Source: Escherichia coli
GTDB lineage: Bacteria; Pseudomonadota; Gammaproteobacteria; Enterobacterales; Enterobacteriaceae
Length of the DNA stretch: 64,000 bases
Assembly: GCF_003991155.1 (NCBI RefSeq)
Contig: NZ_CP031293.1
Strand: one strand, 5' to 3'
The notes beneath the pieces are model-generated. The model had not been told where the DNA came from and did not search any database. It saw only the letters and a program-made list of their open reading frames with translations. Within the stretch, counting starts at the first letter, position 1; every line of letters starts with the position of its first letter. Of the stretch, positions 5,193 through 62,796 are shown one piece after another. The position numbers and the translations under genes were made by a program.

Positions 5193-5385
5193 AAACGCCC
5201 CCTTTTTGTACCTTAACAGCATGATTTATGGTCAAAAAGAGATACAACCACATAATTTTCAAGACTATTTTGGCCCCCTACGCTGGCATTATCCAGATCA
5301 GGTGATACGGGTATTTCTCAGCCTTCACGCAGAAGGGCACCCCGAGTCGTTTGGTTGCGATGATAAATCGCAAAGGAGGATGGTA

Positions 5386-19300: not shown

Positions 19301-20185
19301 TCGCTGATACTTGATTTCGGCCCACGTCAATTCACCGTTGGTTTTGACGAAACCTTAAAACCTGTAGTGCGCGATGCAAACGGCAAGGTCCTGAAAGATT
19401 TACCCAAACCAAATCAGAGCGATGATAAAACACTGGCAACTGACGCCGTTAACCTCTTTAAACAATTGAAGAAAGATGTTCGTGCTATCGCCAGCCAGCA
19501 AATTACCCGTCTGGAACAGGCTATGTGCCAGCGCAGACGCTGGACGACAGAGCAGTTCCGCCTGTTCATGGTGGAGCACCCACTGGTACGTCACTTAACC
19601 CGACGACTGTTATGGGGGGTATATACTGAGGAAAACACGCTGATTGCCTGCTTCCGGGTCGCAGAAGACAGCACTTACAGCGATATGCAGGATGAGCTAT
19701 TCACGCTACCAGCAGGAAACATCGGTATTCCGCATATGCTGGAAATCCCCCCTGAATCTGCCGCTGCATTCAGGCAAATTTACGCTGATTACGAACTGCT
19801 CCCCCCCTTCCAACAGCTCGATCGTGGTAGTTATCGTCTTGCTGATAATGAACGGAATACCCACGAACTGACACGCTGGAGCGGACGCCTTTGCCAGGCA
19901 GGGCGCATTGTCGGGCTAGAGCGCCGAGGTTGGCAACGTCTGGAAGAAAGCGGCAGCGTCTATGCGATGCGCAAATCTACTCCTTATGGCGATCTCGAAC
20001 TTGAAACAGAACATTTTTCATTAATTTATGGCGAAACAGGTTATGGCGACCTGTTACCTGTTGAAAGCGTAAAAATCACCTCGCCAGATGATCGCTACGG
20101 TAAACAACCTTTACTTACTTTTTCCATGCTCGACGACATCACCGCCAGCGAGCTGATTAACGACATTGAATCATTGTTTGATTAA
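16385..20185 (+). CDS. molR: Large MolR-like protein, paralog 1 (N-terminal WGR-like domain, long C-terminal region)
   Basis: 1266 aa. N-terminus HKFWAVEQQGNELHISWGKVGTNGQ fits the WGR pattern; C-terminal half shares long near-identical segments with the next gene. Symbol assignment is tentative. Confidence 0.75.
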   Translation: MRHFIYQDKKSHKFWAVEQQGNELHISWGKVGTNGQNQVKSFADAAAAAKAELKLIAEKTKKGYVENASANVHIPPITKATPEVKTPPVSQNKHPWLADDAVIPVTDDINRFAFPHRSRPREINYLHKDGQIWQRIANNTRAYDPDNNYRSYPENWQQAFAELQSRILDNQQTGSAQSDAALLWSFWNSYSADELVDDLVIRCGLESAVEIALFALQLKYKPVKGAVTTIIPPGHKAESLPSWHQRLCHHLSLASEDEWQRCVNKVLTAIPTLSPARQPFAALLLPERPDIANAMALRYADQNVPAMTWLRLVVTDDAALTAAEKYDFPPLYRDFRAYLAMLLANNGVSGVSRILTEFVEEHSDNPTYLFERISETEDLVKWLWKTNHPDAIQILILGVIGKKKHLEYLSKACQKHPAAAIAAYATLLAIHEDAQWRNALVKLVTVTPELVCDVIPWVNAKAAGILSECRPQPVAEECEYATVDMLPELFVSPPWMTKEKKKNTPVFDLPVLPVPSVSDVTPEIAKRLTRTYLVTRFQQIAQQQATKQTLFTDLPPIKKASWEKHLIPLTPEQQILWHLGFEKWRESGEKIYEKIPAPQSAVDALLRFDFPALNAEFVQYHNNAYKSWNLIALCYLPGQQAISFLNQIVKEDNYSDEGNILAIFGSAAIPAFMTCLQRDPRRLCFFPFFLGVSDLALPMAQQLQKKMSYDDARNWLTDYPRHAAAGLLPVALGKHCQNREYARQALRLLVNLNQRETIEEIARGYNQPDVLAALATLFDSDPLEEYPAKIAPLPGFYQFTLWRRPRLKSNNLPLSDDAMRHLGTMLSFPRDITAYAGLDIIREIFTRESLADFGWDLYTAWMESGAPAKENWAFTSLGILGNNDTARKLTPLIRAWPGESQHKRAVSGLDVLASIGSDIALMLLNGIAQKIKFKALQEHARDKINMVAENRGLTMAELEDRLAPDLGLDINGSLILDFGPRQFTVGFDETLKPVVRDANGKVLKDLPKPNQSDDKTLATDAVNLFKQLKKDVRAIASQQITRLEQAMCQRRRWTTEQFRLFMVEHPLVRHLTRRLLWGVYTEENTLIACFRVAEDSTYSDMQDELFTLPAGNIGIPHMLEIPPESAAAFRQIYADYELLPPFQQLDRGSYRLADNERNTHELTRWSGRLCQAGRIVGLERRGWQRLEESGSVYAMRKSTPYGDLELETEHFSLIYGETGYGDLLPVESVKITSPDDRYGKQPLLTFSMLDDITASELINDIESLFD

Positions 20186-20197
20186 AAGGATTTAGCA

Positions 20198-23100
20198 ATG
20201 AAAACCTATATTTATCAGGACGAAAAATCACATAAATTCTGGGCAGTGGAGCAACAGGGAAACGAGCTGCATATTAGTTGGGGCAAAGTCAGTACCAACG
20301 GGCAAAGCCAGGTAAAAAGCTTTGCTGATGCTGCGGCGGCGGAAAAAGCGGAACTGAGGCTGATTGCGGAGAAGATGAAGAAGGGGTATGTGGAGCAAGC
20401 GAAGGATAATTCTTTGCAACCTTCCCAAACGGTAACGGATTCTCTCAAGGTAGCGGCCTTATCCACCATTATTCAGGAACAACCCTTTTGCGTAGCAGAA
20501 GCCCGTGTGGCTGACAAAAATACAGATGATGTTTTACCGTGGCTGGCGAAAGATATTGCTGTCGTTTTTCCGCCCGAAGTTGTACACACCACGTTAAGCC
20601 ATCGCCGCTTTCCCGGAGTTCCTGTTCAGCAAGCAGACAACTTGACCCAGTTACGTCGCTTAGCCTGTAGCGTGTCGCAACGGGATAATAAAACAGCCAC
20701 ATTTGACTTCAGCGCCTGTTCTTTAGTATGGCAAAACACCGTCGCCCAGGCGATCAGTCAGATCGACTGCCTGAAAACAACACAGTTACCATCACCAGTA
20801 ATGGCTGTACTCACGGCACTTGAAATGAAATGCACAAGATATAAAGTGCGTGAGGATGTTATGGATCAGATCATTCAGGAAGGCGGTCTGGAATATGCTA
20901 CTGATGTAATAATACACCTTCAACAGATTGATATTGAATGGAATTATGCGAATAATATCATTATTATTCTGCCGTCTGGCATTGCACCTGATAACTTGCA
21001 GCAATATTCCAGTTTTGAATTACGCCTACGGAAACATTTATCACTGGCGGAAGAGTCTCTCTGGCAAAAATGTGCACAAAAACTTATTGCCGCAATTCCA
21101 CATATTCCAGAATGGCGGCAACCATTAATTGCTTTGTTATTACCCGAAAAACCAGAAATTGCACATGAAATTGCCCAGCGTCTACTGGGGAAAAAAAAAT
21201 TACCCTCGCTTGAGTGGCTAAAAATAGTGGCGACTGATGAGCACATTCTTGCCTCATTAGAAAAATATCACGAGCCATATGCCATTTTTGATGATTACTA
21301 TTGTGGTGCGATATGGTCAGCCACCGTATTACAGGAGCAAGGTGTTGCAGCCCTGCCCCGATTTGCTCCCTATGCCGCAAGTGACTACTGCGCCGATGTG
21401 TTGCGTCATATCAATCATCCGTTCGCATTAACACTGCTTATACGTGTAGCCGGGCATACTAAACGCTGTCACGATCGAATGACGAAAGCCTGCGCTGCGT
21501 TCCCACACGCAGCACTGGCAGCACTGGCGGAACTTCTAGTGCAAAAAGAAGAGAATAGTTGGCGCATTATGCTAATGACGATGCTTATCTCGCAACCAGC
21601 ACTGGCAGAACAGGTCATTCCCTGGCTTTCGACACCCGCAGCTGCAGTGCTGAAATCATGCCAGCAACAACTGACACAGCCATCAAACCATGCCAGCACC
21701 GATCTACTGCCGGCCATAGTAGTCTCCCCACCATGGCTTTCGAAAAAGAAAAAATCGTCGATTCCGGTGCTTGATTTAGCACCATTAGGCATTGAGCCAA
21801 TCAGTTATCTGACAGAAGAAATCAGTAATCAACTTTTGGCGAAATATATCTGGTATTCAAAACACATCACGGTTAGTCATGAAGAAAGTACTGCCAATCT
21901 GTTGGCAAGGATGGGTTTTCAACGACGGATCGCTGGTACATATATTAAAGCTCCCGAAGCGGTAGTTGAGGCATGGCTAAATGAAGATTATTCAACCTTA
22001 ATAAGTGAATTTAAGGTGTTTCATTCACCTACCGGGCATTATTGGCATTTGGGGATTTTGACAACATTGCCGCTGGAGAAAGCAATAAGAGCATGGAATG
22101 CCCTTACTCTATCTCCGCATACCGATACCGAATACGCCATGTTACATTTTGGACTCAAAGGATTACCTGGGTTAGTAAACTCACTTGCACGTTATCCACA
22201 GGAAGCCTTGCCCATAACGAATTACTTCGCAGCGAGTGAGCTGGCTCCTGCCGTCGCCCGCGCCTTCAACAAACTCAAAACCCTACGACAAGACGCCCGC
22301 ACCTGGCTGCTGAAATACCCGGAACACGCCATTACCGGCCTGCTACCTTCGGCGCTCGGCAAAGCCGGTGAAGCACAGGATAACGCCCGCGCTGCCTTGC
22401 GTATGCTTATCGAAAACGATCATCAGCCATTACTGCAAGAAATCGCCCGGCGTTATAACCAGCCGGAAGTAACAGATGCGGTGAACGCTATGCTTGCGCT
22501 CGATCCCTTAGATAATCACCCGACAAAAATCCCCACTCTTCCGGCCTTTTATCAGCCATCGATCTGGACCCGCCCGGTATTAAAAGCAAATGCCCAATCA
22601 CTGCCAGATAACGCCCTCCTCCACCTCGGTGAAATGCTCCGCTTCCCTCAGGAAGAGGCTCTGTATCCGGGATTATTGCAGGTGAAAGATGCCTGTACCG
22701 CCGACTCACTGGCTGAATTTGCCTGGGATCTGTTTACCGCCTGGCAGACCGCTGGCGCACCGTCGAAAGAAAGTTGGGCGTTCACTGCGTTAGGCGTTCT
22801 CGGTAACGATGACACCGCCCGCAAACTGACGCCATTAATCCGCGCCTGGCCTGGCGAATCTCAGCATAAACGTGCCACCGTTGGGTTGGATATTCTCGCT
22901 GCTATCGGCAGCGATATCGCCCTGATGCAGCTTAACGGCATCGCCCAGAAACTGAAATTCAAAGCATTACAGGAGCGAGCAAAAGAAAAAATTGCCGACA
23001 TTGCCGAAAGCCGCGAACTCACAGTGGCAGAACTTGAAGATCGGTTAGCACCGGATCTCGGTCTGGATGATAACGGTTCGCTGCTGCTGGATTTCGGGCC

Positions 23101-23992
23101 ACGGCAGTTCACCGTCAGCTTTGATGAAACCTTAAAACCGTTTGTGCGTGATGCTTCCGGCAGCCGCCTGAAAGACTTGCCTAAACCGAACAAAAGCGAT
23201 GATGAAACCCAAGCGAACGATGCAGTTAACCGCTACAAACTGTTGAAAAAAGATGCGCGTACCGTTGCCGCCCAGCAGGTAGCAAGGCTGGAATCCGCCA
23301 TGTGCCTACGCCGCCGCTGGTCGCCGGAAAACTTCCAGCTATTCCTGGTTGAGCATCCGCTGGTTCGCCACTTAACCCGCCGTCTGATTTGGGGCGTTTA
23401 TAGCACCGAAAACGAGCTACTGGCCTGTTTCCGGGTGGCAGAAGATAACAGCTACAGCACCGCTGACGATGATCTTTTCACCCTGCCGGAAGGCGATATC
23501 TCTATTGGTATTCCTCACGTTCTGGAAATATCACCGACGGATGCCGCCGCCTTTGGTCAGCTTTTTGCCGACTACGAACTTTTACCGCCGTTCCGTCAGC
23601 TCGACCGCAACAGTTATGCCCTGACTGAAGTCGAACGCAACGCCAGCGAACTAACCCGCTGGGCAGGCAGAAAATGCCCGAGCGGTCGGGTTATGGGGCT
23701 GTCGAATAAAGGCTGGGTGCGTGGTGAACCGCAGGACGGTGGCTGGATCGGCTGGATGATCAAACCTCTGGGCCGCTGGTCATTAATCATGGAAATCGAT
23801 GAAGGATTTGCAGTTGGTATGTCGCCAGCCGAACTCAGTGCCGAGCAACTCTTAAGCAAGCTGTGGCTATGGGAAGGCAAAGCAGAAAGCTATGGCTGGG
23901 GGAGTCATTCAACACAGGAAGCGCAGTTCTCCGCACTCGATGACATCACCGCCAGCGAGTTGATTAACGATATTGAAGCCCTGTTTGAATAA
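20198..23992 (+). CDS. Large MolR-like protein, paralog 2 (N-terminal WGR-like domain)
   Basis: 1264 aa; same N-terminal and C-terminal sequence blocks as paralog 1, separated from it by only 12 bp. Confidence 0.75.
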   Translation: MKTYIYQDEKSHKFWAVEQQGNELHISWGKVSTNGQSQVKSFADAAAAEKAELRLIAEKMKKGYVEQAKDNSLQPSQTVTDSLKVAALSTIIQEQPFCVAEARVADKNTDDVLPWLAKDIAVVFPPEVVHTTLSHRRFPGVPVQQADNLTQLRRLACSVSQRDNKTATFDFSACSLVWQNTVAQAISQIDCLKTTQLPSPVMAVLTALEMKCTRYKVREDVMDQIIQEGGLEYATDVIIHLQQIDIEWNYANNIIIILPSGIAPDNLQQYSSFELRLRKHLSLAEESLWQKCAQKLIAAIPHIPEWRQPLIALLLPEKPEIAHEIAQRLLGKKKLPSLEWLKIVATDEHILASLEKYHEPYAIFDDYYCGAIWSATVLQEQGVAALPRFAPYAASDYCADVLRHINHPFALTLLIRVAGHTKRCHDRMTKACAAFPHAALAALAELLVQKEENSWRIMLMTMLISQPALAEQVIPWLSTPAAAVLKSCQQQLTQPSNHASTDLLPAIVVSPPWLSKKKKSSIPVLDLAPLGIEPISYLTEEISNQLLAKYIWYSKHITVSHEESTANLLARMGFQRRIAGTYIKAPEAVVEAWLNEDYSTLISEFKVFHSPTGHYWHLGILTTLPLEKAIRAWNALTLSPHTDTEYAMLHFGLKGLPGLVNSLARYPQEALPITNYFAASELAPAVARAFNKLKTLRQDARTWLLKYPEHAITGLLPSALGKAGEAQDNARAALRMLIENDHQPLLQEIARRYNQPEVTDAVNAMLALDPLDNHPTKIPTLPAFYQPSIWTRPVLKANAQSLPDNALLHLGEMLRFPQEEALYPGLLQVKDACTADSLAEFAWDLFTAWQTAGAPSKESWAFTALGVLGNDDTARKLTPLIRAWPGESQHKRATVGLDILAAIGSDIALMQLNGIAQKLKFKALQERAKEKIADIAESRELTVAELEDRLAPDLGLDDNGSLLLDFGPRQFTVSFDETLKPFVRDASGSRLKDLPKPNKSDDETQANDAVNRYKLLKKDARTVAAQQVARLESAMCLRRRWSPENFQLFLVEHPLVRHLTRRLIWGVYSTENELLACFRVAEDNSYSTADDDLFTLPEGDISIGIPHVLEISPTDAAAFGQLFADYELLPPFRQLDRNSYALTEVERNASELTRWAGRKCPSGRVMGLSNKGWVRGEPQDGGWIGWMIKPLGRWSLIMEIDEGFAVGMSPAELSAEQLLSKLWLWEGKAESYGWGSHSTQEAQFSALDDITASELINDIEALFE

Positions 23993-24001
23993 GGAAAGAA
24001 C

Positions 24002-27000
24002 ATGGACAAGGAATTACCGTGGCTGGCGGATAACGCCCAACTGGAACTGAAATATAAAAAAGGCAAAACACCACTCAGCCATCGCAATTGGCCGGGAGAA
24101 CCGGTGCCTGTTATCACTGAAAGCCTCATCCAGACACTGGGTGATAAATTGCTACACATTGCTGAGAAGAAAAAAAACATTGTCTGGCGTTATGAAAATT
24201 TTTCACTGGAATGGCAGTCCGCCATCACGCAGGCCATCAACTTGATCGGCGAGCACAAACCCTCAGTTCCGGCCCGGACAATGGCGGCGCTAGCCTGTAT
24301 CGCGCAAAATGACAGCCAACAGTTGCTCGACGAAATCGTCCAACAAGAGGGACTGGAATATGCGACTGAGGTGGTGATTGCACGCCAGTTTATTGCACAG
24401 TGTTATGAGAGTGATCCTCTGCTAGTGACATTGCAGTATCAGAACGAGGATTATGGCTATGGTTATCGCTCAGAAACCTATAACGAATTCGATCTCCGAC
24501 TGCGTAAGCATCTCTCTCTGGCAGAGGAAAGCTGCTGGCAGCGTTGCGCCGACAAACTCATTGCCGCACTGCCAGGACTACCCCAAGTTCGCCGTCCTTT
24601 TATTGCGCTGATCCTCCCGGAAAAACCAGAAATCGCCAATGAGTTGGTAGGCCTTGAATGCCCGTGGACTCATTTTCATTCTAAGGAGTGGTTAAAAGTT
24701 GTTGCTACTGACCACAGGGCAGTGGGAAAACTCGAACGCTACTGGAGCCAGGATATATTTAGCGATCGCGAAGCCAGCTACATGTCGCATGAAAACCACT
24801 TCGGCTACGCGGCCTGCGCCGCCCTTTTGCGCGAACAAGGAATTGCAGCCGTTCCACGCCTCGCGATGTATGCCCATAAAGAAGATTGCGGCAGTCTGCT
24901 GGTACAAATTAACCATCCGCAGGTCATCCGTACCCTGCTGTTAGTTGCTGATAAAAATAAACCCAGCCTGCAACGTGTGGCTAAATACAGTAAAAACTTC
25001 CCCCATGCGACGCTTGCCGCACTGGCAGAGCTTCTGGCGTTAAAAGAACCGCCTGCACGCCCTGGTTATCCAATCATCGAAGACAAAAAGCTGCCTGCAC
25101 AGCAAAAAGCTCGAGATGAATACTGGCGTACGCTGTTACAAACGCTGATGGCATCGCAGCCACAACTGGCAGAAGAGGTGATGCCGTGGTTAAGTACTCA
25201 AGCCCAGGCAGTGCTGAATAGTTATTTATCGGCACCGCCCAAAACGGTTATTGATAGCACCGATAACATCCAAATGCCTGAAATCCTCGTTTCACCACCG
25301 TGGCGTAGTAAGAAAAAAATGACAGTTCCACGTCTTGATTTGGCACCGTTCGAATTAACGCCGCAAGTTTACTGGCAACCAGGCGAACGAGAGAGGCTTG
25401 CCGCCACTGAGTCTGCCCGTTATTTCAGCACGGAATCTCTTGCGGAACGCATGGAACAAAAAAGTGGACGAGTTGTATTACAGGAGCTGGGTTTTGGAGA
25501 TGATGTATGGCTGTTTTTGAATTATATACTCCCCGGAAAACTGGATGCTGCACGCAATTCACTCATTGTTCAGTGGCATTACTACCCAGGGCGGGTTGAA
25601 GAGATCATGAATGGCTGGAGCTCCCCGGAAGCTCAATTAGCAGAACAGGCGCTTCGCAACGGTCACGTAGAAGTGTTAATTAACATATGGGAAAATGACA
25701 GCTACTCACGCTATCGTCGGGAAAAGAGTATCTGGAACCTGTATTTATTGGCGCAGTTGCCGCGTGAGATGGCTTTGACTTTCTGGCTACGTATCAATGA
25801 GAAAAAGCATCTGTCTGCGGGTGAGGACTATTTTCTCAGTATCTTCGGATTGGATGCTCTACCAGGTCTGCTGTTGGCTTTTTCACATCGTCCAAAAGAA
25901 ACATTTCCATTAATTTTAAATTTCGGCGCAACAGAACTGGCCCTGCCCGTTGCCCGCGTCTGGCGACGTTTCGCGGCGCAGCGTGATCTGGCTCGCCAGT
26001 GGATTTTACATTGGCCGGAACATACAGCTACTGCACTTATCCCTCTTGTCTTCACCAAATCCAGCGATAATAGCGAAGCTGCATTACTTGCCCTGCGTTT
26101 ACTTTACGAACAGGGACATGGCGAATTACTGCAAACCGTGGCAAACCGCTGGCAGCATACAGATGTATGGCCTGCCCTGGAGCAATTACTTAAACAGGGT
26201 CCAATGGACATTTACCCGGCACGCATTCCCAAAGCCCCTGATTTCTGGCATCCGACAATGTGGTCCAGACCGAGACTTATCACGAATAATCAGCCTGTTA
26301 CCGATGATGCTCTGGAAATTATCGGCGACATGCTGCGCTTTACCCAGGGCGGACGTTTTTATTGCGGGCTGGAACAACTGAAAACGTTCTGCCAGCCACA
26401 AACGCTGGCAGCTTTTGCCTGGGATCTCTTCACCGCGTGGCAACAAGTTGGCGCCCCCGCAAAAGACAACTGGGCATTTCTGGCGTTAAGTCTCTTCGGT
26501 GACGAAAGCACGGCTCGGGATCTGACAACACAGATCCTCGCCTGGCCACAGGAAGGCAAATCTGCCCGTGCCGTCAGTGGCCTGAACATACTTACTCAGA
26601 TGAATAATGATATGGCGCTGATACAGCTGCATCATATATCGCAACGGGCGAAATCCCGCCCCTTACGTGATAACGCGGCGGAATTTCTTCAGGTGGTCGC
26701 AGAAAATCGTAGGCTAAGCCAGGAACAGTTAGCGGACAGATTAGTCCCAACACTGGGTCTTGATGATCCGCAGGCGTTGAGTTTTGATTTTGGTCCACGG
26801 CAATTTACCGTTCGCTTTGATGAAAACCTTAACCCGGTTATCTTTGATCAGCAAAACGTTCGCCAGAAAAGCGTTCCCCGGTTGCGCGCCGATGACGATC
26901 AACTGAAAGCGCCCGAGGCACTGGCCCGACTAAAAGGGCTAAAAAAAGATGCGACTCAGGTGAGCAAAAACCTGCTCCCGCGTCTTGAAACGGCCCTACG

Positions 27001-27634
27001 CACCACCCGACGCTGGTCGCTGGCAGATTTTCATACTCTGTTTGTTAATCATCCCTTTACCCGCCTGGTTACTCAGCGATTAATATGGGGCGTGTATCCG
27101 GCAAATGAACCGCGTCGTTTACTCAACGCCTTTCGTGTGGCCGCAGAGGGGGAGTTCTGCAATGCACAAGATGAGCCCATTGACCTGCCTGCGGATGCTT
27201 TGATTGGCATTGCCCACCCGTTAGAAATGACAGCAGAAATGCGCAGTGAATTTGCACAGCTTTTTGCCGATTACGAAATTATGCCGCCTTTTCGCCAGTT
27301 GACGAGGCGCACAGTGCTGCTCACGCCTGACGAGTCAGCCAGTAACAGCCTGACTCGCTGGGAAGGTAAATCCGCTACCGTTGGGCAACTTATGGGAATG
27401 CGATACAAAGGCTGGGAGTCAGGCTATGAGGACGCATTTGTCTATGACCTGGGCGAGTACCGGCTGGTCCTTAAGTTTTCATCCGGTTTTAACCACTACA
27501 ATGTTGATAGCAAAGCGCTAATGAGCTTCCGTTCTCTTCATGTATACCGTGACAATAAATCTGTCACTTTTGCCGAACTTGATGTGTTTGATTTGAGTGA
27601 AGCGTTAAGCGCACCCGACGTCATTTTCCATTAA
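24002..27634 (+). CDS. yehI: Large YehI protein (shares the C-terminal region of the two upstream paralogs, lacks the WGR-like N-terminus)
   Basis: 1210 aa; shared blocks such as DLFTAWQ..GAPAKDNWAF and FGPRQFTV; 9 bp downstream of paralog 2. Confidence 0.85.
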   Translation: MDKELPWLADNAQLELKYKKGKTPLSHRNWPGEPVPVITESLIQTLGDKLLHIAEKKKNIVWRYENFSLEWQSAITQAINLIGEHKPSVPARTMAALACIAQNDSQQLLDEIVQQEGLEYATEVVIARQFIAQCYESDPLLVTLQYQNEDYGYGYRSETYNEFDLRLRKHLSLAEESCWQRCADKLIAALPGLPQVRRPFIALILPEKPEIANELVGLECPWTHFHSKEWLKVVATDHRAVGKLERYWSQDIFSDREASYMSHENHFGYAACAALLREQGIAAVPRLAMYAHKEDCGSLLVQINHPQVIRTLLLVADKNKPSLQRVAKYSKNFPHATLAALAELLALKEPPARPGYPIIEDKKLPAQQKARDEYWRTLLQTLMASQPQLAEEVMPWLSTQAQAVLNSYLSAPPKTVIDSTDNIQMPEILVSPPWRSKKKMTVPRLDLAPFELTPQVYWQPGERERLAATESARYFSTESLAERMEQKSGRVVLQELGFGDDVWLFLNYILPGKLDAARNSLIVQWHYYPGRVEEIMNGWSSPEAQLAEQALRNGHVEVLINIWENDSYSRYRREKSIWNLYLLAQLPREMALTFWLRINEKKHLSAGEDYFLSIFGLDALPGLLLAFSHRPKETFPLILNFGATELALPVARVWRRFAAQRDLARQWILHWPEHTATALIPLVFTKSSDNSEAALLALRLLYEQGHGELLQTVANRWQHTDVWPALEQLLKQGPMDIYPARIPKAPDFWHPTMWSRPRLITNNQPVTDDALEIIGDMLRFTQGGRFYCGLEQLKTFCQPQTLAAFAWDLFTAWQQVGAPAKDNWAFLALSLFGDESTARDLTTQILAWPQEGKSARAVSGLNILTQMNNDMALIQLHHISQRAKSRPLRDNAAEFLQVVAENRRLSQEQLADRLVPTLGLDDPQALSFDFGPRQFTVRFDENLNPVIFDQQNVRQKSVPRLRADDDQLKAPEALARLKGLKKDATQVSKNLLPRLETALRTTRRWSLADFHTLFVNHPFTRLVTQRLIWGVYPANEPRRLLNAFRVAAEGEFCNAQDEPIDLPADALIGIAHPLEMTAEMRSEFAQLFADYEIMPPFRQLTRRTVLLTPDESASNSLTRWEGKSATVGQLMGMRYKGWESGYEDAFVYDLGEYRLVLKFSSGFNHYNVDSKALMSFRSLHVYRDNKSVTFAELDVFDLSEALSAPDVIFH

Positions 27635-28015: not shown

Positions 28016-28453
28016 CTTTATTAAAGAGGGAGACGGTATTCCCCCTTAGATGCGTTTCAATTTGCCCGTTACTTCAACAAATCAATCAACCGTAACAGAG
28101 CCACTAATAACTCCAGTACGGCAATGAGCACAGTTAACTTTTGTGTCAGCGTGTCCATCCGCTCTCCTTATTAAGGAGCGCAACACCAGCACCTTACCCT
28201 TACACTGCCTGTCGATACTGGTTTACGTATGTTGGACCACGATGTTGCACTCCGGATCAGGGCACTACCTGCGGCACCACCCGTCCGGTAGCCATGACTT
28301 GAAATGGGTTCGATCCGGCGCAACGTCCCAACAGTCAGGATTATAAATCTCATTATCTTAATTGCAACGGGGTCCACCGATGGTTATAATTCGTTCGTTG
28401 GAACACGATGTTGCACAGGCTGCGGCGTTGGGCCTGAAAATAGTAAATAAAAG

Positions 28454-36958: not shown

Positions 36959-38640
36959 GCCTCGTCCCTCCATGGTAGTCGTAACGTTATTCGGGTGTAA
37001 CTATCAGGCTCACAGGCGACGCTTATCCCATAGTCATCGCCAAACCGTTCACGTAAACGCTTATCCACCAGATTCATCCCCAGCCCACTGGCATTGGTTA
37101 CCGGTTGATACAAACCTGCATTGTCTTCGATCTCCAGCATCAAATGTTGCCCCTCACGTCGGGCGCTGATTGCCACTCGCCCTGTATCCAGCAGTTGTGA
37201 TGTCCCATGTTTAATGGCGTTTTCCACTATCGGTTGCAGGGTAAACGCGGGCAATTGCTGCTGGGATAATTCTTGCGGAATAGCAATGTTGACCTGCAAC
37301 CGCGACTGGAAGCGCGCCTTTTCAATTTGCAGATAAGCGTTCACATGTTCAATTTCGTCGGCGAGAGTAACAAACTCCGAAGGCCGCTTTAAGTTTTTGC
37401 GGAAAAAAGTGGAAAGATACTGCACCAGCTGGCTGGCCTGTTCGCTGTCGCGGCGGATCACCGCTTTAATGGTGTTAAGCGCATTAAACAAAAAATGGGG
37501 ATTCACCTGGGCGTGAAGCAGTTTGATCTCTGACTGGGTGAGCATCGCTTTTTGCCGCTCATATTGCCCGGCGAGGATCTGTGCCGAAAGCAGTTGCGCA
37601 ATCCCCTCACCCAGCGTGCGATTGATTGAACTGAATAAACGGTTTTTGGCTTCATACAATTTGATGGTACCCATCACTCGCTGATTTTCACCACGCAACG
37701 GAATGACCAGCGTCGACCCCAGTTTGCATTGCGGATGCAAAGAGCAACGGTAAGGCACTTCGTTGCCATCAGCGTAGACCACTTCACCGGTTTCAATCGC
37801 TTTTAAGGTATAAGTTGAAGAAATCGGTTTGCCGGGTAAATGGTGGTCGTCACCAATTCCGGTAAAGGCCAGCAATTTCTCTCGATCGGTAATCGCGACT
37901 GCACCAATATCCAGCTCCTGATACAGCACCTGTGCCACTTTCATGCTGTTCTCTTCGTTAAACCCCTGGCGCAAAATGCCTTCCGTCGAGGCCGCCACTT
38001 TCAGCGCAGTGGCAGAAAAAGCCGAAGTGTATTTTTCAAACATCGCGCGTTTATCGAGCAATATACGCATAAACAGTGCCGCGCCGACGGTATTGGTGAC
38101 CATCATTGGCGCAGCAATATTACTCACCAGACGCACCGCATCTTCATAAGGTCGGGCGATCGCCAGGATGATCAACATTTGCACCATTTCAGCGACGAAC
38201 GTAACGGCACCGGCGGTAATGGGGTTAAAGACTTTATCAGTGCGCCCGCGACGGATCAGGATGCTGTGTACCAGGCCGCCGAGCAATCCTTCAACGATGG
38301 TCGAGATCATGCAACTTAGCGCGGTCATGCCCCCCATCGAATATCGATGTAACCCGCCGGTCAGACCAACCAGCCCACCGACGACCGGACCGCCGAGTAA
38401 GCCGCCCATTACCGCGCCTATCGCACGGGTATTGGCAATAGAATCGTCAATGTGCAACCCAAACCAGGTGCCCATGATGCAGAAGATGGAAAAGACGATG
38501 TAGCAGAGAAATTTATGCGGCAGACGAACCGTGACCTGCATTAGCGGTATGAATAATGGCGTTTTACTCATTAACCACGCAATGACTAAAAAAACGCACA
38601 TCTGCTGAAGCAGCAGCAACACCAGATTAAAATCGTACAT
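36955..38640 (-). CDS. btsS: Sensor histidine kinase BtsS (YehU)
   Basis: Start trimmed to [13 protein letters not shown], 561 aa; multi-pass membrane N-terminus; stop overlaps the btsR start. Confidence 0.93.
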
Positions 38641-38861
38641 ACCCGCAAACCACACTTCCCTTTAAAACGCGTAACATACATTGCCTGCGTTTAACTTTCT
38701 TTGAACTCTTGCAGAAAAATGAGAATTCGTGAGTACGATCACTCAAAATCGCCTGGCAAAAATAAAATCACCCTATAGATGCACAAAAAACGGGCAAAAC
38801 TACCTGGTTCGCAAAACTGCGTCTAAAGTTAAACCGGGACCTCGCGAGCAAGGGTGAGACG

Positions 38862-39593
38862 ATGGCGCTTTACACAATTGGTGAAGTGGCGTTGCTTTGT
38901 GATATTAACCCTGTCACGTTACGCGCGTGGCAGAGGCGTTACGGATTGCTGAAACCGCAACGGACAGACGGCGGTCATCGGCTGTTCAACGATGCCGATA
39001 TTGACCGGATCCGCGAGATCAAACGCTGGATCGACAACGGCGTGCAGGTCAGCAAAGTAAAAATGCTGCTCAGTAATGAAAATGTTGATGTGCAGAACGG
39101 CTGGCGCGATCAGCAAGAAACATTACTGACTTACCTGCAAAGCGGCAATCTGCATAGCCTGCGAACGTGGATCAAAGAGCGCGGTCAGGATTACCCCGCC
39201 CAGACACTCACCACACATCTGTTTATTCCTCTGCGCCGACGACTTCAGTGTCAACAACCGACTCTCCAGGCGCTGCTAGCGATCCTCGACGGCGTACTGA
39301 TCAACTACATCGCCATCTGTCTGGCTTCGGCACGTAAAAAACAGGGTAAAGATGCGCTGGTGGTTGGCTGGAATATTCACGATACCACCCGTCTGTGGCT
39401 GGAGGGCTGGATTGCCAGTCAACAAGGATGGCGCATTGATGTCCTCGCCCACTCGCTCAATCAACTACGCCCTGAACTGTTCGAAGGCCGTACATTGCTG
39501 GTGTGGTGCGGTGAAAATCGAACCTCCGCCCAACAGCAGCAACTCACCAGTTGGCAGGAACAAGGCCATGATATTTTCCCACTCGGCATTTAA
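38862..39593 (+). CDS. mlrA: MerR-family regulator MlrA
   Basis: 243 aa; N-terminal MerR HTH (YTIGEVALLCDINPVTLRAWQRRYGLL). Confidence 0.95.
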   Translation: MALYTIGEVALLCDINPVTLRAWQRRYGLLKPQRTDGGHRLFNDADIDRIREIKRWIDNGVQVSKVKMLLSNENVDVQNGWRDQQETLLTYLQSGNLHSLRTWIKERGQDYPAQTLTTHLFIPLRRRLQCQQPTLQALLAILDGVLINYIAICLASARKKQGKDALVVGWNIHDTTRLWLEGWIASQQGWRIDVLAHSLNQLRPELFEGRTLLVWCGENRTSAQQQQLTSWQEQGHDIFPLGI

Positions 39594-39652
39594 TGATTCG
39601 TTAACAAATGCGCTTTACTGTACAATCCTTTCGTTAACATAAGGAGTGCATT

Positions 39653-39760
39653 ATGCGCATAGCTAAAATTGGGGTCATCGCCCTGTTCCTGTTTATGGCG
39701 TTAGGCGGAATTGGTGGCGTCATGCTCGCAGGTTATACCTTTATTTTGCGTGCTGGCTGA
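39653..39760 (+). CDS. yohO: Small membrane protein YohO (35 aa)
   Basis: Found by eye, below the ORF-track cutoff: [35 protein letters not shown], with AAGGAG upstream. Confidence 0.8.
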
Positions 39761-40472
39761 ACGCCTGCACCAGCCTTTCAAACAGGCGGTCTGCGATGAT
39801 CGCCGCCAGTGCCACCAGTAACGCCCCCTGGATCACATACGCGGTATTAAATCCGCTAAGCCCGATGATGATCGGCATACCCAGCGTGCTGGCCCCTACC
39901 GTTGAGGCGATCGTCGCCGTACCAATGTTGATAATCACCGAAGTTCGCACGCCCGCCAGAATCACCGGAGCCGCCAGCGGTAGCTCGACCTTACGCAGTC
40001 GCTGACCACGACTCATTCCCATACCTTTCGCAACTTCTGTCACGCTGGCATCAATCGCTCCCAGCCCGGCAAGTGTCGCCTGCAGGACGGGCAGCACGCC
40101 GTAAAGGATCAAGGCGATAATCGCGGGTTGCAGACCAAAGCCGATCACCGGAACGGCAATCGCCAGCACCGCGACGGGCGGAAAAGTCTGCCCAACGGCG
40201 GCAATAGTTTCCACCAGTGGGCGAAATTCCGCGCCCCACGGGCGAGTAACAATAATTCCTGCACCAGTGCCAATGATCACCGCAAACAAACTCGAAATTC
40301 CCACCAGCCAGAAATGAGCCAGTGCCAGAGCTGCAAAACTTTCTTGCTGATAAACGGGGCGTGGCAGTTGTGGGAACAAGGCAGCAAACAGCGGCTGGCT
40401 GTAAGGCAGCCAGAAAATCAGTGCCACAAACAAAGCAATGAGCCAGAACAGCGGATCGCGCAACATCTTCAT
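39741..40472 (-). CDS. yehW: ABC transporter permease YehW (osmoprotectant uptake)
   Basis: 243 aa, hydrophobic permease. Confidence 0.92.
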
Positions 40473-40476
40473 ACGT

Positions 40477-41403
40477 TTATGCCTCCACCAGCAGATCCTG
40501 AAAATGCAGCGTGCCGCAAGGCTGGCCCTGCGTGTTCATCACCGGCAGCACCTCGCATCCCCGCGCGACAAACAGGGAGAGCGCATCGCGTAGCGTCATC
40601 TCTTCTGCCAGTGCCTCACCTTCTGCACGTTCTTCGCGACGCACGTAATCCGCCACACTACGTAACGAAAGCAGGCGCACACCCAGTTCACTACGTCCAA
40701 AAAACTGGCGAACAAAATCATTCGCCGGACGAGTCAGCATCGTCAGCGGATTGCCCTGCTGCACCACTTCACCGTGATCCATCAATACCAAATGTTCTGC
40801 CAGCCGTAGCGCCTCATCAATATCATGAGTGACCAGCACAATAGTGCGCCCCTGCAAACGGTGAATGCGCGTCATCTCTTGTTGCAACGCGCCGCGCGTT
40901 ACCGGGTCCAGTGCGCCAAAAGGTTCATCCATCAGCAAGACTTGCGGATCGGCAGCCAGTGCGCGCGCCACTCCCACACGTTGCTGCTGACCACCGGAAA
41001 GCTGATGCGGATAACGCTCACGCAGATTTGACTCCAGCCCCAGTAGCGCCATTAATTCGTCGATACGATCGTCAATCCGTGCCCGCGACCATTTTTGTAA
41101 TTGCGGCACGGTAGCGATGTTTTGCGCCACGCTCCAGTGGGGGAACAGGCCAATAGATTGAATGGCATAGCCCATCCGGCGGCGCAACTCCAGTACTGGC
41201 AGCGAGCGAATTTCTTCTCCGGCAAAGCGGATCACGCCGCTGTCATGCTCCACCAGGCGGTTGATCATTTTCAGGGTGGTGGATTTGCCGGAGCCAGATG
41301 TGCCAATCAGCACCGAAAAACTCCCCTCCTGAAAATTGAGATTGAGATCGTTAACGGCTTTTTGTGCGCCGAACAGTTTGCTGACATGGCTAAATTCAAT
41401 CAT
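40477..41403 (-). CDS. yehX: ABC transporter ATP-binding protein YehX
   Basis: 308 aa; Walker [10 protein letters not shown] and ABC signature LSGGQQQR. Confidence 0.93.
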
Positions 41404-53010: not shown

Positions 53011-53094
53011 ATGAAAATTATACTCTGGGCTGTATTGATTATTTTCCTGATTGGGCTACTGGTGGTGACTGGCGTATTTAAGATGATATTTTAA
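53011..53094 (+). CDS. yohP: Small membrane protein YohP (27 aa)
   Basis: Found by eye: MKIILWAVLIIFLIGLLVVTGVFKMIF with AAGGAA upstream. Confidence 0.8.
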   Translation: MKIILWAVLIIFLIGLLVVTGVFKMIF

Positions 53095-54560
53095 AATTAA
53101 TTAATGTCATCAGGTCCGAAAATAACGAGAATAGTTCAGTCTCTCATCCTGTTGCGCTCCTGTCATGTGCATTGCTTCATATCATCACTGGCGCAAGGAG
53201 CGCGCAGGGGGCGGCCAGTCGCCGTCGCCCCCTGCACCCCCGGGCTCTGGCGAACAAAATCGCCGCTGCGCGGTACCCTCGGCTTATCCCTTGCTGCTAC
53301 CGGGTCGGGCGCGAGGTAACATATATGGACGCTCCCGGAATGCAATGCTTTCTTCAGTTATGTAATAAAACGGGTAGGTGCAGCCATATATCCGGTTTCT
53401 GATGGGATTTTTATCCCGAACCATGATGAAATCCGCCAGGCAGGTACCAATCATCCTCTACGGGCTAACTTGCCCTTGTTACCTCTCGGTGTATCCTGCC
53501 TGCGGTCTTACCTGTTTTGCCATCTTCTGAAGTCACCTGCACCTCCCAGGACGTTAACTTTTTTTCAGCACCTCGTCAGATTGACTGACCTTGTGTCAGG
53601 CGAGCTGCCGAGGTTGATATTCAGTATTGTGTGACAACATTGACCACATGATCCTCGCTGTTTTTGCCGCCATGGCGACAACAGCTACATTGTAGTGCTT
53701 CCGCTCAAGGAGTCCCTGAAGCCAGGAATTCTCCTCAACCGCGCCGTTTCGGTTGACCCAGGCGGTAAGTGCGCGTGCGCCGTGAACCAGCAGGTATCGG
53801 AAATATCCATCTCCACGTTTGCTGATCCCTCCCAGTTGCTGTTTCCCGCCGCTGGAATGTTCCTTTGGTGTCAGCCCCAGCCATGAAGCGAACTGCTTTG
53901 CGGTACTGAATTGTCGGGCATTACCCACTGCTGCTACCACATAAGTGGCCGTTAGCATGCCAACCCCCGGGATCTTGGCCATTCTCTGGCAGGCTTCCTG
54001 CGTTCTATACCAGGAGGCCAGAGCTTCTTCTACCTGTTTAACTTGTTCTTCAAGTTCCCGGATATGTTTAGACTGTCTGTAGATGCTGGTTCTGACAAAG
54101 GGAGATAAACCATTTTCGCCATCCTCCAGAATGGCTGGCAGCTCACGTGTTAAATGGCTTTGTCCGGCCGCAATCGTAATACCAAACTCAGCAAGTGTGG
54201 CTCTTAAACTATTGGCACAGGCAATCCGCTCACGGATAAGTATTCCCCGTTCAGTGTGTAACGCTAAAACGGCCTGCTGCTCTTCGGTTTTTATCTGAAC
54301 AAAACGCATATTCGGACGGGTTACCGCTTCGCAGATTGCTTCAGCATCTGCTGCATCCGTCTTGTTCGTTTTCACATAAGGCTTCACATACTGCGGAGGT
54401 ATGAGTTTTACCTCATGACCATAGCGGGTGAATAATCGCGCAAAATAATGACTGGATGAGCAGGCTTCCATGCCAATCAGACAAGGTTCCAGTTGAATCA
54501 CAAACTGAACAAACTTAGCCCGGGTGAGCTTTTTACGCAAAATAGTATGGCCTTCATGAT

Positions 54561-55810
<1,250 letters not shown>

Positions 55811-56221: not shown

Positions 56222-57121
56222 ATGTTTTCTGGGCTGTTAATCATTCTGGTTCCCCTGATTGTGGGTTACCTCATTCCGCTTCGCCAAAAAGCTGCATTAA
56301 GAGTTATTAATCAGCTATTAAGCTGGATGGTTTACCTTATTCTCTTTTTTATGGGTATCAGTCTGGCGTTTCTCGATAACCTCGCCAGTAACCTGTTGGC
56401 GATTCTGCATTATTCTGCTGTCAGTATTACCGTTATTTTACTGTGTAATATTGCCGCCCTGATGTGGCTGGAGCGCGGCCTGCCATGGCGCAACCACCAT
56501 CATCAAGAAAAACTCCCGTCGCGTATTGCGATGGCGCTGGAGTCGCTAAAACTGTGCGGCGTAGTAGTGATTGGTTTTGCCATTGGCCTGAGTGGACTGG
56601 CTTTCTTACAACATGCGACCGAAGCCAGTGAATACACCTTAATTCTGCTACTTTTCCTCGTCGGTATTCAGTTGCGCAATAATGGCATGACCTTAAAGCA
56701 GATTGTCCTTAATCGCCGGGGAATGATTGTCGCCGTGGTGGTGGTTGCCAGTTCATTAATTGGTGGTTTAATTAACGCCTTTATTCTTGATCTTCCCATC
56801 AATACCGCGCTGGCAATGGCCTCCGGTTTCGGCTGGTATTCTCTTTCCGGTATTTTATTGACCGAATCTTTTGGTCCGGTAATCGGGAGCGCGGCGTTTT
56901 TTAATGATCTGGCCCGTGAGCTGATTGCTATTATGTTGATCCCTGGGCTGATTCGCCGTAGCCGCTCGACTGCACTGGGCTTATGTGGTGCGACGTCGAT
57001 GGATTTCACCCTGCCCGTTCTTCAACGTACTGGCGGGCTGGATATGGTCCCGGCGGCGATTGTTCACGGTTTTATTCTTAGCCTGTTAGTGCCGATCCTC
57101 ATCGCCTTTTTCTCTGCATAA
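56222..57121 (+). CDS. lysO: Lysine exporter LysO (YbjE)
   Basis: Start trimmed to MFSGLLIILVPLIVGYLIPL, 299 aa, multi-pass membrane protein. Confidence 0.9.
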   Translation: MFSGLLIILVPLIVGYLIPLRQKAALRVINQLLSWMVYLILFFMGISLAFLDNLASNLLAILHYSAVSITVILLCNIAALMWLERGLPWRNHHHQEKLPSRIAMALESLKLCGVVVIGFAIGLSGLAFLQHATEASEYTLILLLFLVGIQLRNNGMTLKQIVLNRRGMIVAVVVVASSLIGGLINAFILDLPINTALAMASGFGWYSLSGILLTESFGPVIGSAAFFNDLARELIAIMLIPGLIRRSRSTALGLCGATSMDFTLPVLQRTGGLDMVPAAIVHGFILSLLVPILIAFFSA

Positions 57122-57154
57122 TACCTCTCTGGCGGTAGATCCCTGCCGCCAAAA

Positions 57155-57168
57155 TTGCGCTAAATCAA
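57155..57168. promoter_or_regulatory. Candidate FNR-like site upstream of hcp
   Basis: TTGCGctaaATCAA resembles TTGAT-N4-ATCAA with two mismatches in the left half. Low confidence. Confidence 0.25.
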
Positions 57169-57264
57169 TCTCCCCTAAAGTTGCATTAAAAATCTCTTTT
57201 ATCCCCGCGTTAAGCGTCTTAACCTTAAACATGTATATTAAATATAACTTTAAAAGGTGTGATC

Positions 57265-58917
57265 ATGTTTTGTGTGCAATGTGAACAAACTATCCGTACT
57301 CCGGCAGGAAACGGCTGCTCATACGCGCAGGGGATGTGTGGTAAAACGGCGGAAACCTCTGACCTTCAGGATTTACTCATCGCGACGCTGCAAGGGCTTT
57401 CGGCCTGGGCAGTGAAAGCACGTGAATACGGCATCATCAACCACGATGTAGACAGCTTTGCGCCACGTGCCTTTTTCTCAACCCTGACCAACGTTAACTT
57501 CGATTCTCCGCGTATTGTCGGCTACGCTCGTGAAGCGATTGCCCTGCGCGAGGCGCTGAAAGCACAGTGCCTGGCTGTAGATGCCAACGCCCGCGTCGAT
57601 AACCCGATGGCTGACCTGCAACTGGTGAGTGACGATCTCGGCGAGCTGCAACGTCAGGCGGCGGAATTTACTCCCAATAAAGATAAAGCTGCGATTGGCG
57701 AAAACATTCTCGGCCTGCGTCTGCTGTGCCTGTATGGCCTGAAAGGTGCGGCGGCCTATATGGAACACGCACACGTTCTCGGTCAATACGACAACGATAT
57801 TTATGCCCAGTACCATAAAATCATGGCGTGGCTGGGGACCTGGCCTGCCGATATGAACGCGCTTCTTGAGTGTTCAATGGAAATCGGCCAGATGAACTTC
57901 AAAGTGATGAGCATTCTGGATGCAGGCGAAACCAGTAAATACGGTCACCCGACGCCAACCCAGGTCAACGTCAAAGCGACGGCAGGTAAATGCATTCTGA
58001 TTTCCGGTCACGATCTCAAAGATCTCTACAACCTGCTGGAACAGACCGAAGGCACGGGCGTTAATGTCTACACCCACGGTGAAATGCTGCCTGCGCATGG
58101 CTACCCGGAGCTGCGTAAATTCAAGCATCTGGTCGGTAACTACGGCAGCGGCTGGCAGAATCAGCAAGTGGAGTTCGCTCGTTTCCCTGGCCCCATCGTG
58201 ATGACCTCGAACTGCATCATCGACCCAACCGTAGGCGCTTATGACGATCGTATCTGGACCCGCAGCATCGTTGGCTGGCCGGGTGTGCGTCATCTGGATG
58301 GCGAAGATTTCTCTGCGGTCATCGCCCAGGCGCAACAGATGGCGGGCTTCCCGTACAGCGAAATTCCGCACCTGATCACCGTGGGCTTTGGTCGCCAGAC
58401 ACTGCTTGGCGCAGCCGATATGCTGATTGATCTGGTGAGCCGTGAAAAACTGCGTCATATCTTCCTGCTTGGCGGCTGTGACGGCGCACGCGGCGAGCGT
58501 CACTACTTCACCGATTTCGCCACCAGCGTGCCGGATGACTGCCTGATCCTGACCCTCGCTTGCGGTAAATATCGCTTTAATAAACTTGAGTTTGGCGATA
58601 TCGAAGGTCTGCCGCGTCTGGTAGATGCTGGTCAGTGTAACGATGCTTACTCAGCAATTATTCTGGCGGTAACGCTGGCAGAGAAACTGGGCTGCGGAGT
58701 CAACGATCTGCCGCTGTCGCTGGTGCTCTCCTGGTTTGAACAGAAAGCGATTGTCATTCTGCTGACGCTGCTTTCTCTGGGTGTGAAAAATATCGTCACC
58801 GGCCCGACTGCACCTGGTTTCCTGACACCAGACCTGCTGGCGGTGCTGAACGAGAAATTCGGCCTGCGTTCTATCACCACTGTTGAAGAAGACATGAAGC
58901 AACTGTTGAGCGCGTAA
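57265..58917 (+). CDS. hcp: Hybrid-cluster protein (hydroxylamine reductase) Hcp
   Basis: Start trimmed to MFCVQCEQT, 550 aa; N-terminal Cys cluster. Confidence 0.95.
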
Positions 58918-58928
58918 GGAGTTTGTCG

Positions 58929-59897
58929 ATGACGATGCCAACGAATCAATGCCCGTGGCGGATGCAGGTTCATCACATTACGCAAGAAACGCCGGATGTG
59001 TGGACGATTTCCCTGATTTGCCACGATTACTACCCATATCGCGCCGGGCAATATGCACTGGTCAGCGTGCGTAACTCAGCGGAAACGCTGCGTGCTTACA
59101 CCATTTCCTCCACGCCAGGCGTGAGTGAATACATTACCCTGACTGTGCGGCGGATTGATGACGGTGTCGGCTCCCAGTGGCTGACGCGCGATGTAAAACG
59201 CGGTGATTATCTCTGGCTTTCGGACGCGATGGGGGAATTTACCTGCGACGATAAAGCAGAAGATAAATTCCTGTTGCTGGCGGCAGGCTGCGGCGTTACG
59301 CCGATTATGTCGATGCGTCGCTGGCTGGCGAAGAACCGTCCACAGGCCGATGTGCAGGTGATCTACAACGTGCGTACGCCGCAGGATGTGATTTTCGCCG
59401 ATGAGTGGCGTAACTATCCGGTAACGCTGGTGGCGGAAAATAACGTTACCGAAGGCTTTATCGCTGGTCGTCTCACTCGCGAACTGCTGGCAGGTGTCCC
59501 TGATTTAGCCTCACGTACCGTGATGACCTGTGGCCCTGCTCCATATATGGATTGGGTAGAGCAGGAAGTGAAAGCGCTCGGCGTGACGCGTTTCTTTAAA
59601 GAGAAATTCTTCACCCCAGTAGCGGAAGCGGCGACCAGCGGTCTGAAATTCACCAAACTGCAACCGGCACGAGAATTTTACGCCCCGGTTGGCACCACGC
59701 TACTGGAGGCGCTGGAAAGCAATAACGTTCCGGTTGTCGCCGCCTGCCGTGCAGGTGTTTGCGGCTGCTGTAAGACAAAAGTGGTTTCCGGTGAATATAC
59801 GGTGAGCAGCACAATGACGCTGACCGACGCCGAAATCGCTGAAGGTTACGTGCTGGCCTGCTCCTGCCATCCGCAGGGAGATTTGGTTCTCGCATAA
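58929..59897 (+). CDS. hcr: NADH oxidoreductase Hcr (FAD and 2Fe-2S)
   Basis: Start trimmed to MTMPTNQCPW, 322 aa; C-terminal ferredoxin-type CRAGVCGCC motif. Confidence 0.93.
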   Translation: MTMPTNQCPWRMQVHHITQETPDVWTISLICHDYYPYRAGQYALVSVRNSAETLRAYTISSTPGVSEYITLTVRRIDDGVGSQWLTRDVKRGDYLWLSDAMGEFTCDDKAEDKFLLLAAGCGVTPIMSMRRWLAKNRPQADVQVIYNVRTPQDVIFADEWRNYPVTLVAENNVTEGFIAGRLTRELLAGVPDLASRTVMTCGPAPYMDWVEQEVKALGVTRFFKEKFFTPVAEAATSGLKFTKLQPAREFYAPVGTTLLEALESNNVPVVAACRAGVCGCCKTKVVSGEYTVSSTMTLTDAEIAEGYVLACSCHPQGDLVLA

Positions 59898-60029
59898 TCG
59901 CCTGATGCCCGATGATATTCCTTTCATCGGGCTATTTAACCGTTAGTGCCTCCTTTTTCTCCCATCCCTTCCCCCTCCGTCAGATGAACTAAACTTGTTA
60001 CCGTTATCACATTCAGGAGATGGAGAACC

Positions 60030-61748: not shown

Positions 61749-61784
61749 AAAGGGTGGCATTTCCCGTCATAATAAGGACATGCC

Positions 61785-62786
61785 ATGATTGATTTACGCA
61801 GTGATACCGTTACCCGACCGAGCCGCGCCATGCTCGAAGCGATGATGGCCGCCCCGGTTGGGGACGACGTTTACGGAGACGACCCTACCGTTAATGCTCT
61901 GCAGGACTATGCAGCAGAGCTTTCCGGTAAAGAAGCCGCCATTTTTCTGCCGACCGGCACCCAGGCTAACCTGGTCGCTCTGCTCAGTCACTGCGAACGC
62001 GGCGAAGAGTATATTGTCGGTCAGGCCGCACACAACTATCTGTTTGAAGCCGGTGGCGCAGCGGTGCTGGGCAGTATTCAACCGCAACCCATCGACGCGG
62101 CTGCCGACGGCACGCTACCGCTGGATAAAGTGGCGATGAAAATCAAACCCGACGATATCCATTTCGCCCGCACCAAATTACTCAGTCTGGAAAACACTCA
62201 CAACGGCAAAGTGCTGCCGCGTGAATACCTCAAAGAAGCATGGGAATTTACCCGCGAGCGCAATCTGGCGCTGCATGTGGACGGTGCGCGCATCTTTAAT
62301 GCTGTGGTGGCTTACGGCTGCGAACTGAAAGAGATCACACAATATTGTGATTCGTTCACCATTTGCCTGTCGAAAGGTCTTGGGACGCCAGTCGGTTCAT
62401 TACTCGTCGGTAATCGTGATTACATTAAACGTGCCATTCGCTGGCGGAAAATGACAGGTGGCGGGATGCGCCAGTCCGGCATTCTGGCTGCCGCCGGAAT
62501 ATATGCCCTGAAAAATAACGTTGCGCGCTTGCAGGAAGACCACGACAACGCTGCCTGGATGGCGGAGCAGCTGCGTGAAGCAGGCGCGGATGTGATGCGT
62601 CAGGACACCAATATGCTGTTTGTTCGCGTCGGGGAAGAAAATGCTGCCGCGTTAGGCGAATACATGAAAGCGAGAAACGTGCTGATTAACGCCTCGCCGA
62701 TTGTCCGCCTGGTGACGCATCTTGACGTCTCGCGCGCTCAGCTGGCGGAAGTCGCCGCCCACTGGCGCGCATTCCTGGCGCGTTAA
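61785..62786 (+). CDS. ltaE: Low-specificity L-threonine aldolase LtaE
   Basis: 333 aa, PLP-dependent aldolase. Confidence 0.95.
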
Positions 62787-62796
62787 GGAGGGAGAC

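Follow-up and report, generated by a model that had tools for sequence, protein, structure and literature searches.

The short open reading frame between mlrA and yehW in the window (the whole stretch of Escherichia coli DNA that was analysed, 64,000 nt in length) is yohO, a genuine gene for a translated membrane protein that has long had its entry in the databases, and the probability of this reading is put at roughly 97%. The gene is already known, with entries in UniProt, RefSeq and NCBIfam, and experiments have detected its protein. As the preliminary description had pointed out, yohO is missing from the track of open reading frames supplied with the sequence, and the sole cause is the default minimum length of that track, since a product of 35 aa falls below the 60 aa required. 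The locus is accordingly of value here as a calibration point for the scan, not as a discovery, in that a reader working without tools had named a true gene below the cutoff of the track; the same 60-aa cutoff also conceals yohP and zorO in the window. The features of the locus, as far as they are needed in the following, are:

38862–39593, + strand: mlrA, 243 aa, the upstream neighbour, ending 59 nt before yohO
39590–39606, + strand: palindromic element TTAATGATTCGTTAACA, lying over the putative −35 region and including the mlrA stop codon; a candidate operator
39621–39626, + strand: −10-like hexamer TACAAT, with invariant T, A, A and T columns in an upstream alignment of 18 genera
39633–39639, + strand: second GTTAACA, directly before the Shine-Dalgarno sequence and 33 nt downstream of the first TTAACA
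39641–39646, + strand: Shine-Dalgarno sequence AAGGAG, 6 nt before the yohO ATG
39653–39760, + strand: yohO coding sequence, with ATG start, 35 codons and TGA stop, for a single-helix small membrane protein
39741–39760: tail-to-tail coding overlap of yohO and yehW, 20 nt, with the yehW stop on YohO codons F30/I31
39741–40472, − strand: yehW, 243 aa, convergent with yohO and the final gene of osmF-yehYXW, the operon for a glycine betaine ABC transporter

The identity of the gene was established from database matches. The translated frame passed the NCBIfam equivalog model NF010225 ('protein YohO') with 80.1 bits against a cutoff of 57 (E = 8.8e-23), and residues 1–35 of the protein aligned to positions 1–35 of the profile (35/35). 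An exact-sequence look-up returned YOHO_ECOLI, described as 'UPF0387 membrane protein YohO' and found on at least 1000 contigs, as well as 'protein YohO [Escherichia coli]'. The RefSeq record of strain 2016C-3878 (NZ_CP029747.1), from which the window differs by one base in 32,957, is 100% identical across an 801-nt stretch around yohO; it carries yohO (WP_001216963.1, 'protein YohO') at exactly matching coordinates, within the gene run btsR-btsS-mlrA-yohO-yehW-yehX-yehY-osmF. The 801-nt stretch was found in 5423 of the 5426 complete E. coli genomes, at 95–100% identity. In comparison with YOHO_ECOLI (UPF0387; NCBIfam NF010225/PRK13681) no difference was observed, as both the sequence and the position between mlrA and yehW are identical, and the name that the preliminary description had given to the gene is therefore correct. 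Pfam holds no family for YohO, its only match being B12D, far below threshold. Likewise, no chain related to YohO was retrieved in a PDB profile search, PADLOC returned no match for YohO, and a search of 38500–40600 against Rfam, antitoxins and sRNAs included, gave no match.

The remaining particulars of the preliminary description were also upheld by the sequence. The frame is open from ATG to TGA over the 35 codons claimed for it, and it lies between mlrA on the same strand and yehW on the opposite strand. The product is indeed hydrophobic, with a GRAVY of 1.58 and a best 19-residue Kyte-Doolittle window (residues 8–26) that averages 2.41. The ribosome-binding site described as good is the AAGGAG motif listed above, and the 3′ end of yohO overlaps the yehW stop on the opposite strand through the shared 20 nt. 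When the 332 ATG-initiated frames of 20–50 aa in the 64-kb window were screened for a Shine-Dalgarno sequence together with a GRAVY above 1, only 3 passed; these were yohO, yohP and zorO, each of which is a known small-protein gene, and the combination seen in yohO thus goes beyond chance.

The family to which YohO belongs is narrow, as a HMMER search of 1.84 billion cluster representatives gave 17 YohO-family representatives at E ≤ 0.001. When one genome was scanned for each species, relatives were found in 159 genomes, and 80 loci were analysed, including those of Escherichia, Salmonella, Citrobacter, Klebsiella, Raoultella, Kosakonia, Leclercia, Pluralibacter, Shimwellia and Erwinia. An intact ATG-initiated yohO frame of 34, 35 or 37 codons was present in all 80. 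Across the 79 distinct nucleotide sequences, the mean entropy at codon positions 1, 2 and 3 was 0.50, 0.18 and 1.21, respectively, and the pooled Nei-Gojobori dN/dS of the yohO frame was ~0.12 for codons 1–33. The value was likewise 0.12 for codons 1–29, which lie outside the overlap with yehW. The other five frames at yohO gave a dN/dS of 0.31–3.6, and the annotated frame was the only one free of stops in all 79 distinct sequences. In combination, the frame-specific dN/dS and the open frame argue that the peptide is translated and selected and, as judged from these alignments, purifying selection has maintained yohO throughout the Enterobacteriaceae and in Erwinia. Residues M1, G19, I20, G22, V23, M24, L25, G27, Y28 and I31 are invariant, and K5, I9, F12, M15, A16, G21, A26 and F30 are conserved at a level of at least 90%.

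One assembly in this set is probably contaminated or mislabelled. The assembly named 'Chryseobacterium sp. 18061' (L080 2501–2614; also L078) carries a typical enterobacterial mlrA-yohO-yehW locus, and the YohO encoded there has the same sequence as the one in 'Citrobacter sp. 18056', an assembly of the same project.

The region upstream of yohO is conserved together with the frame. Of 81 sequences, 76 had a Shine-Dalgarno sequence containing GGAG, which ended 6 nt before the ATG in 73. The −10-like hexamer is TATAAT in most genera and TACAAT in E. coli, and a hexamer of the form TAnAnT started 31–33 nt before the ATG in 70 of the 81 sequences (32 nt in E. coli). From this spacing, transcription would be expected to start near 39633 and to produce a leader of ~20 nt. 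The palindromic element has the family consensus TTAATGnTTCATTAACA, a pattern present in 56 of the 81 sequences, and it is the sole match in the 64-kb window when up to 1 mismatch is allowed. Two or more TTAAC copies were present in 54 sequences, and in 52 of these the spacing of two copies was exactly 33 nt. The −10-like hexamer, the palindrome and the Shine-Dalgarno sequence were also kept in four aligned genera that lack mlrA upstream and, since the palindromic block is equally conserved there, it can be assigned to yohO and not to mlrA. These elements suggest that yohO may have a sigma-70-type promoter of its own, with the −10 hexamer at 39621–39626 and overlapped by an operator-like palindrome. 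Read-through from mlrA could also supply yohO with transcripts, and no terminator was detected in the mlrA-yohO interval.

A generic promoter scan found no promoter on the + strand upstream of yohO, and it probably missed the candidate because the −35 element is poor. A sigma-70-like match on the minus strand (ATGACC-17-CATAAT, 39650–39678) lies within yohO and faces mlrA; it is probably meaningless, as 1 such match was found and 1.2 were expected. The upstream elements are different in Erwinia, where the YohO homologues (34 aa; L031 2501–2605, L044, L048 and L083) lack both the AGGAG and the GTTAACA elements. A GTG directly precedes the ATG in these loci, and in L031 a GC-rich hairpin follows the gene; in this genus, translation may therefore begin at another codon and regulation may differ as well.

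The ribosome profiling that had been proposed as a check for yohO is already published for E. coli, with K-12 data on an identical protein sequence. Ribo-seq coverage of YohO in E. coli is documented in bioRxiv 10.1101/2020.05.05.079178, a preprint that also refers to Hemm et al. 2008 for the membrane association of YohO. In addition, a proteomics study from 2025 detected the 35-aa YohO of E. coli by top-down mass spectrometry, with a coverage of <50% (PMC12529367). With respect to regulation, yohO showed a log2 fold change of −2.96 in Shigella flexneri in the absence of oxygen, and no significant effect of fnr (Δfnr) on the gene is listed in that study (PMC4229854).

As the anaerobic repression in Shigella is apparently independent of fnr, ArcA was considered as the factor that would bind the palindrome. 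This candidate is unsupported, as the ArcA-box consensus had no match in the yohO upstream region at ≤ 3 mismatches. A search of the literature found no paper tying yohO to regulation by ArcA.

The structure of the protein was predicted with AlphaFold2 from an alignment of 35 sequences, which gave one helix spanning residues 3–33 at a mean pLDDT of 92.2. A hydrophobic helix of at least ~19 residues is long enough to cross a bilayer, and the predicted helix exceeds this length and includes the hydrophobic window with the mean of 2.41. YohO would enter the inner membrane as a single-pass helix, and its orientation is likely N-in/C-out from the distribution of charge, as R2 and K5 outnumber R33. 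The predicted helix carries a GGIGGVML core, here called invariant with G21 conserved at a level of at least 90%. The small-residue face that it provides (G18/G19-I-G21/G22-V-M-L) could pack helix-to-helix, either with a second copy of YohO or with a larger membrane protein.

Several small membrane proteins of E. coli, namely AcrZ, KdpF, CydX and MgtS, work by helix-helix packing with larger membrane proteins. The pairs AcrZ/AcrB, KdpF/KdpABC, CydX/CydAB and MgtS/MgtA have in common with YohO a small partner of <50 aa with a single transmembrane helix and a small-residue face, although YohO has no sequence homology to AcrZ, KdpF, CydX or MgtS. By analogy with these systems, the odds that YohO is a modulator acting by helix packing are about even. 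The genes for KdpF and CydX belong to the same operons as those of their partners; yohO, in contrast, is convergent with the operon of its candidate partner. However, AcrZ and MgtS are encoded apart from theirs, so that location in a separate operon lowers the case for an accessory protein without excluding a similar mode of action. YohO is one of many validated E. coli microproteins, and the comparative data presented here leave existing knowledge of yohO unchanged. They do provide handles for a functional study, namely the GGIGGVML core, the conserved and presumably private promoter with its palindrome, and the universal coding overlap with yehW.

Both neighbours, mlrA upstream and yehW convergent downstream, were present in 65 of the 80 species loci; yehW was the only one of the two in 10 loci, mlrA in one, and neither was found in four, all from Erwinia. 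In total, mlrA was thus upstream in 66/80 loci and yehW convergent downstream in 75/80. When each yehW frame was extended to its real stop, the coding regions of yohO and yehW overlapped in every one of the 75 loci that have yehW. The overlap measured 20 nt with a 35-aa YohO (33 loci), 26 nt with a 37-aa YohO (41 loci) and 17 nt with a 34-aa YohO (1 locus), and the yehW stop always fell on YohO codons F30/I31. In Erwinia, the yohO homologues are flanked by genes for a DUF3833 protein and an MFS transporter, and both mlrA and yehW are absent from the vicinity. As these four loci lack the Yeh neighbours, the function of YohO is not strictly dependent on them.

Since it has the tightest genomic association with yohO, OsmF-YehYXW is the obvious candidate partner or target. 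YohO could be an accessory or regulatory subunit of this transporter, binding the YehW/YehY permeases in a manner comparable to KdpF in KdpFABC or AcrZ with AcrB. The linkage to yehW is tighter than that to mlrA and persists in the 10 loci without mlrA, the coding overlap accompanies it in 75/75 loci, and YohO carries a conserved glycine-rich face suited to packing. Against these observations stands the arrangement of the genes, which are convergent and not co-transcribed, so that the co-expression expected within one operon is missing. [quoted passage not shown] The Erwinia homologues are located elsewhere, the PDB profile search gave no solved complex with a relative of YohO, and overlapping gene ends resist rearrangement, so the linkage could last without any functional tie. 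On balance, an accessory subunit of OsmF-YehYXW is considered unlikely, even though it fares better than the other specific proposals discussed below.

The excludon listing stems from a 2025 survey of MG1655, in which yohO-yehW is among 165 convergent excludons, a class defined by transcripts that overlap in no fewer than 50% of the 58 RNA-seq samples (PMC12288877). The same overlap follows from the gene arrangement, as the coding regions share 20 nt and the yohO and yehW mRNAs must overlap as a result. The pair resembles other convergent excludons in its overlapping 3′ transcript ends; in this case the coding regions themselves overlap as well, by 17–26 nt across genera. Reciprocal expression is the defining functional consequence of excludons, and yohO-yehW is placed among them by its overlap and by the RNA-seq listing. 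No intrinsic terminator was evident on either strand near the ends of yohO and yehW, where terminator-like matches occurred at chance level, and folding around the gene ends revealed no significant structure on either strand (z = −1.5 and −0.8). The yohO transcript runs into the 3′ end of yehW, and expression of yohO may be coupled antagonistically to the osmF-yehYXW operon. This coupling is proposed because the yohO transcript enters the yehW 3′ end and the coding regions overlap wherever the two genes are neighbours.

A more elaborate version of the coupling holds that the overlap is functional, with YohO or the converging transcript acting as a switch on OsmF-YehYXW under an oxygen-responsive factor bound to the putative operator TTAATGnnnCATTAACA; this is considered slightly less likely still than the accessory subunit. 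Alternatively, the main role of the locus could be at the RNA level, where antisense transcription of yohO and yehW would tune osmF-yehYXW through interference or RNase III cleavage and the peptide would be secondary. The overlapping transcripts in the MG1655 convergent excludome (PMC12288877), the universal coding overlap and the lack of a detected intrinsic terminator on either strand are all in line with such a role. Conversely, the peptide itself is selected, as seen from the dN/dS of 0.12, the invariant core and the conserved Shine-Dalgarno sequence, and Erwinia retains yohO without yehW nearby. A primarily RNA-level role is accordingly rated as improbable, marginally below the switch, and the strong selection on the peptide speaks against interference as the sole role of the locus.

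Small size, hydrophobicity and an antisense transcript overlapping the 3′ end are also features of yohO that could be expected from a type I toxin-like gene, i.e. a gene for a membrane-damaging peptide silenced by an antisense RNA in the manner of zorO, and a true type I toxin gene, zorO itself, is found in the same window. However, a type I toxin gene is recognized by a long regulatory 5′ UTR or an antisense sRNA antitoxin, and neither is seen at yohO: its predicted leader of ~20 nt with a strong Shine-Dalgarno sequence stands against the 174-nt 5′ UTR of zorO that is targeted by OrzO according to PMC5397157, and no antitoxin or sRNA in Rfam matches 38500–40600. The native protein is furthermore detectable by mass spectrometry and Ribo-seq, and an IPTG-induced ASKA yohO clone came through a growth-based screen, being recovered under that selection (PMC10299036). 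Finally, yohO is a single-copy core gene in stable synteny and not a variable, duplicated locus. The toxin reading is therefore very improbable.

The two other small-protein genes below the 60-aa cutoff are zorO and yohP. The product of zorO is encoded by a 29-aa frame, MDTLTQKLTVLIAVLELLVALLRLIDLLK, at 28069–28158 on the minus strand, with an AAGGAG Shine-Dalgarno sequence; it lies in the gap between yehL and yehK and is single copy in the window. The peptide is 100% identical to the ZorO type I toxin of E. coli O157:H7 (PMC6669753), although the gene is unannotated in the matching RefSeq record and in the other RefSeq records compared. The segment is variable and missing from K-12/B-type strains, which match only ~53% of the 601 nt around zorO. 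The second gene, yohP, is a 27-aa frame, MKIILWAVLIIFLIGLLVVTGVFKMIF, at 53011–53094 on the plus strand, which is annotated in RefSeq and matched NCBIfam NF011345 with 67.3 bits against a cutoff of 58. YohP and ZorO are similar to YohO in being small, hydrophobic, single-helix products preceded by a Shine-Dalgarno sequence, and unrelated to it in sequence. ZorO differs further in that it is a type I toxin repressed by the OrzO sRNA via its 5′ UTR, and in its location in a variable segment, whereas yohO is a core gene with a leader that is predicted to be short.

That yohO is an untranslated frame which happens to be open between mlrA and yehW might be argued from its 35 codons and from the 332 ATG-initiated frames of 20–50 aa that arise by chance in the window, but this reading has next to no probability left and is refuted by the match to the curated model NF010225, the purifying selection specific to the yohO frame, the conserved Shine-Dalgarno sequence and the published detection by mass spectrometry and Ribo-seq.

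Some further observations were made elsewhere in the window. Directly after yohP, at ~53596–55810 and 56222–64000, there are transposase genes of the IS110 and IS3 families and, beyond them, lysO, hcp, hcr, poxB, ltaE and ybjT. In K-12 the lysO-hcp-hcr-poxB-ltaE-ybjT genes are located at a great distance from the yeh/yoh region, and an IS-associated rearrangement junction is therefore suggested for the present strain. The coordinates of both stretches were converted from the annotation of NZ_CP029747.1. Near the other end of the window, at ~3885–5354, a RefSeq TPP riboswitch (about 5259–5354) lies beside rcnR and is directly followed by a gene for a tyrosine recombinase/integrase, after which come genes for an HNH endonuclease, an HTH protein and a recombinase. 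The arrangement resembles a mobile island at a place where riboswitch-controlled thiamine genes would be expected. Between metG and yehK, at ~16385–27634, three large DUF4132-domain genes are arranged in tandem, comprising yehI and two further, unnamed paralogues that each encode about 1,200 aa.
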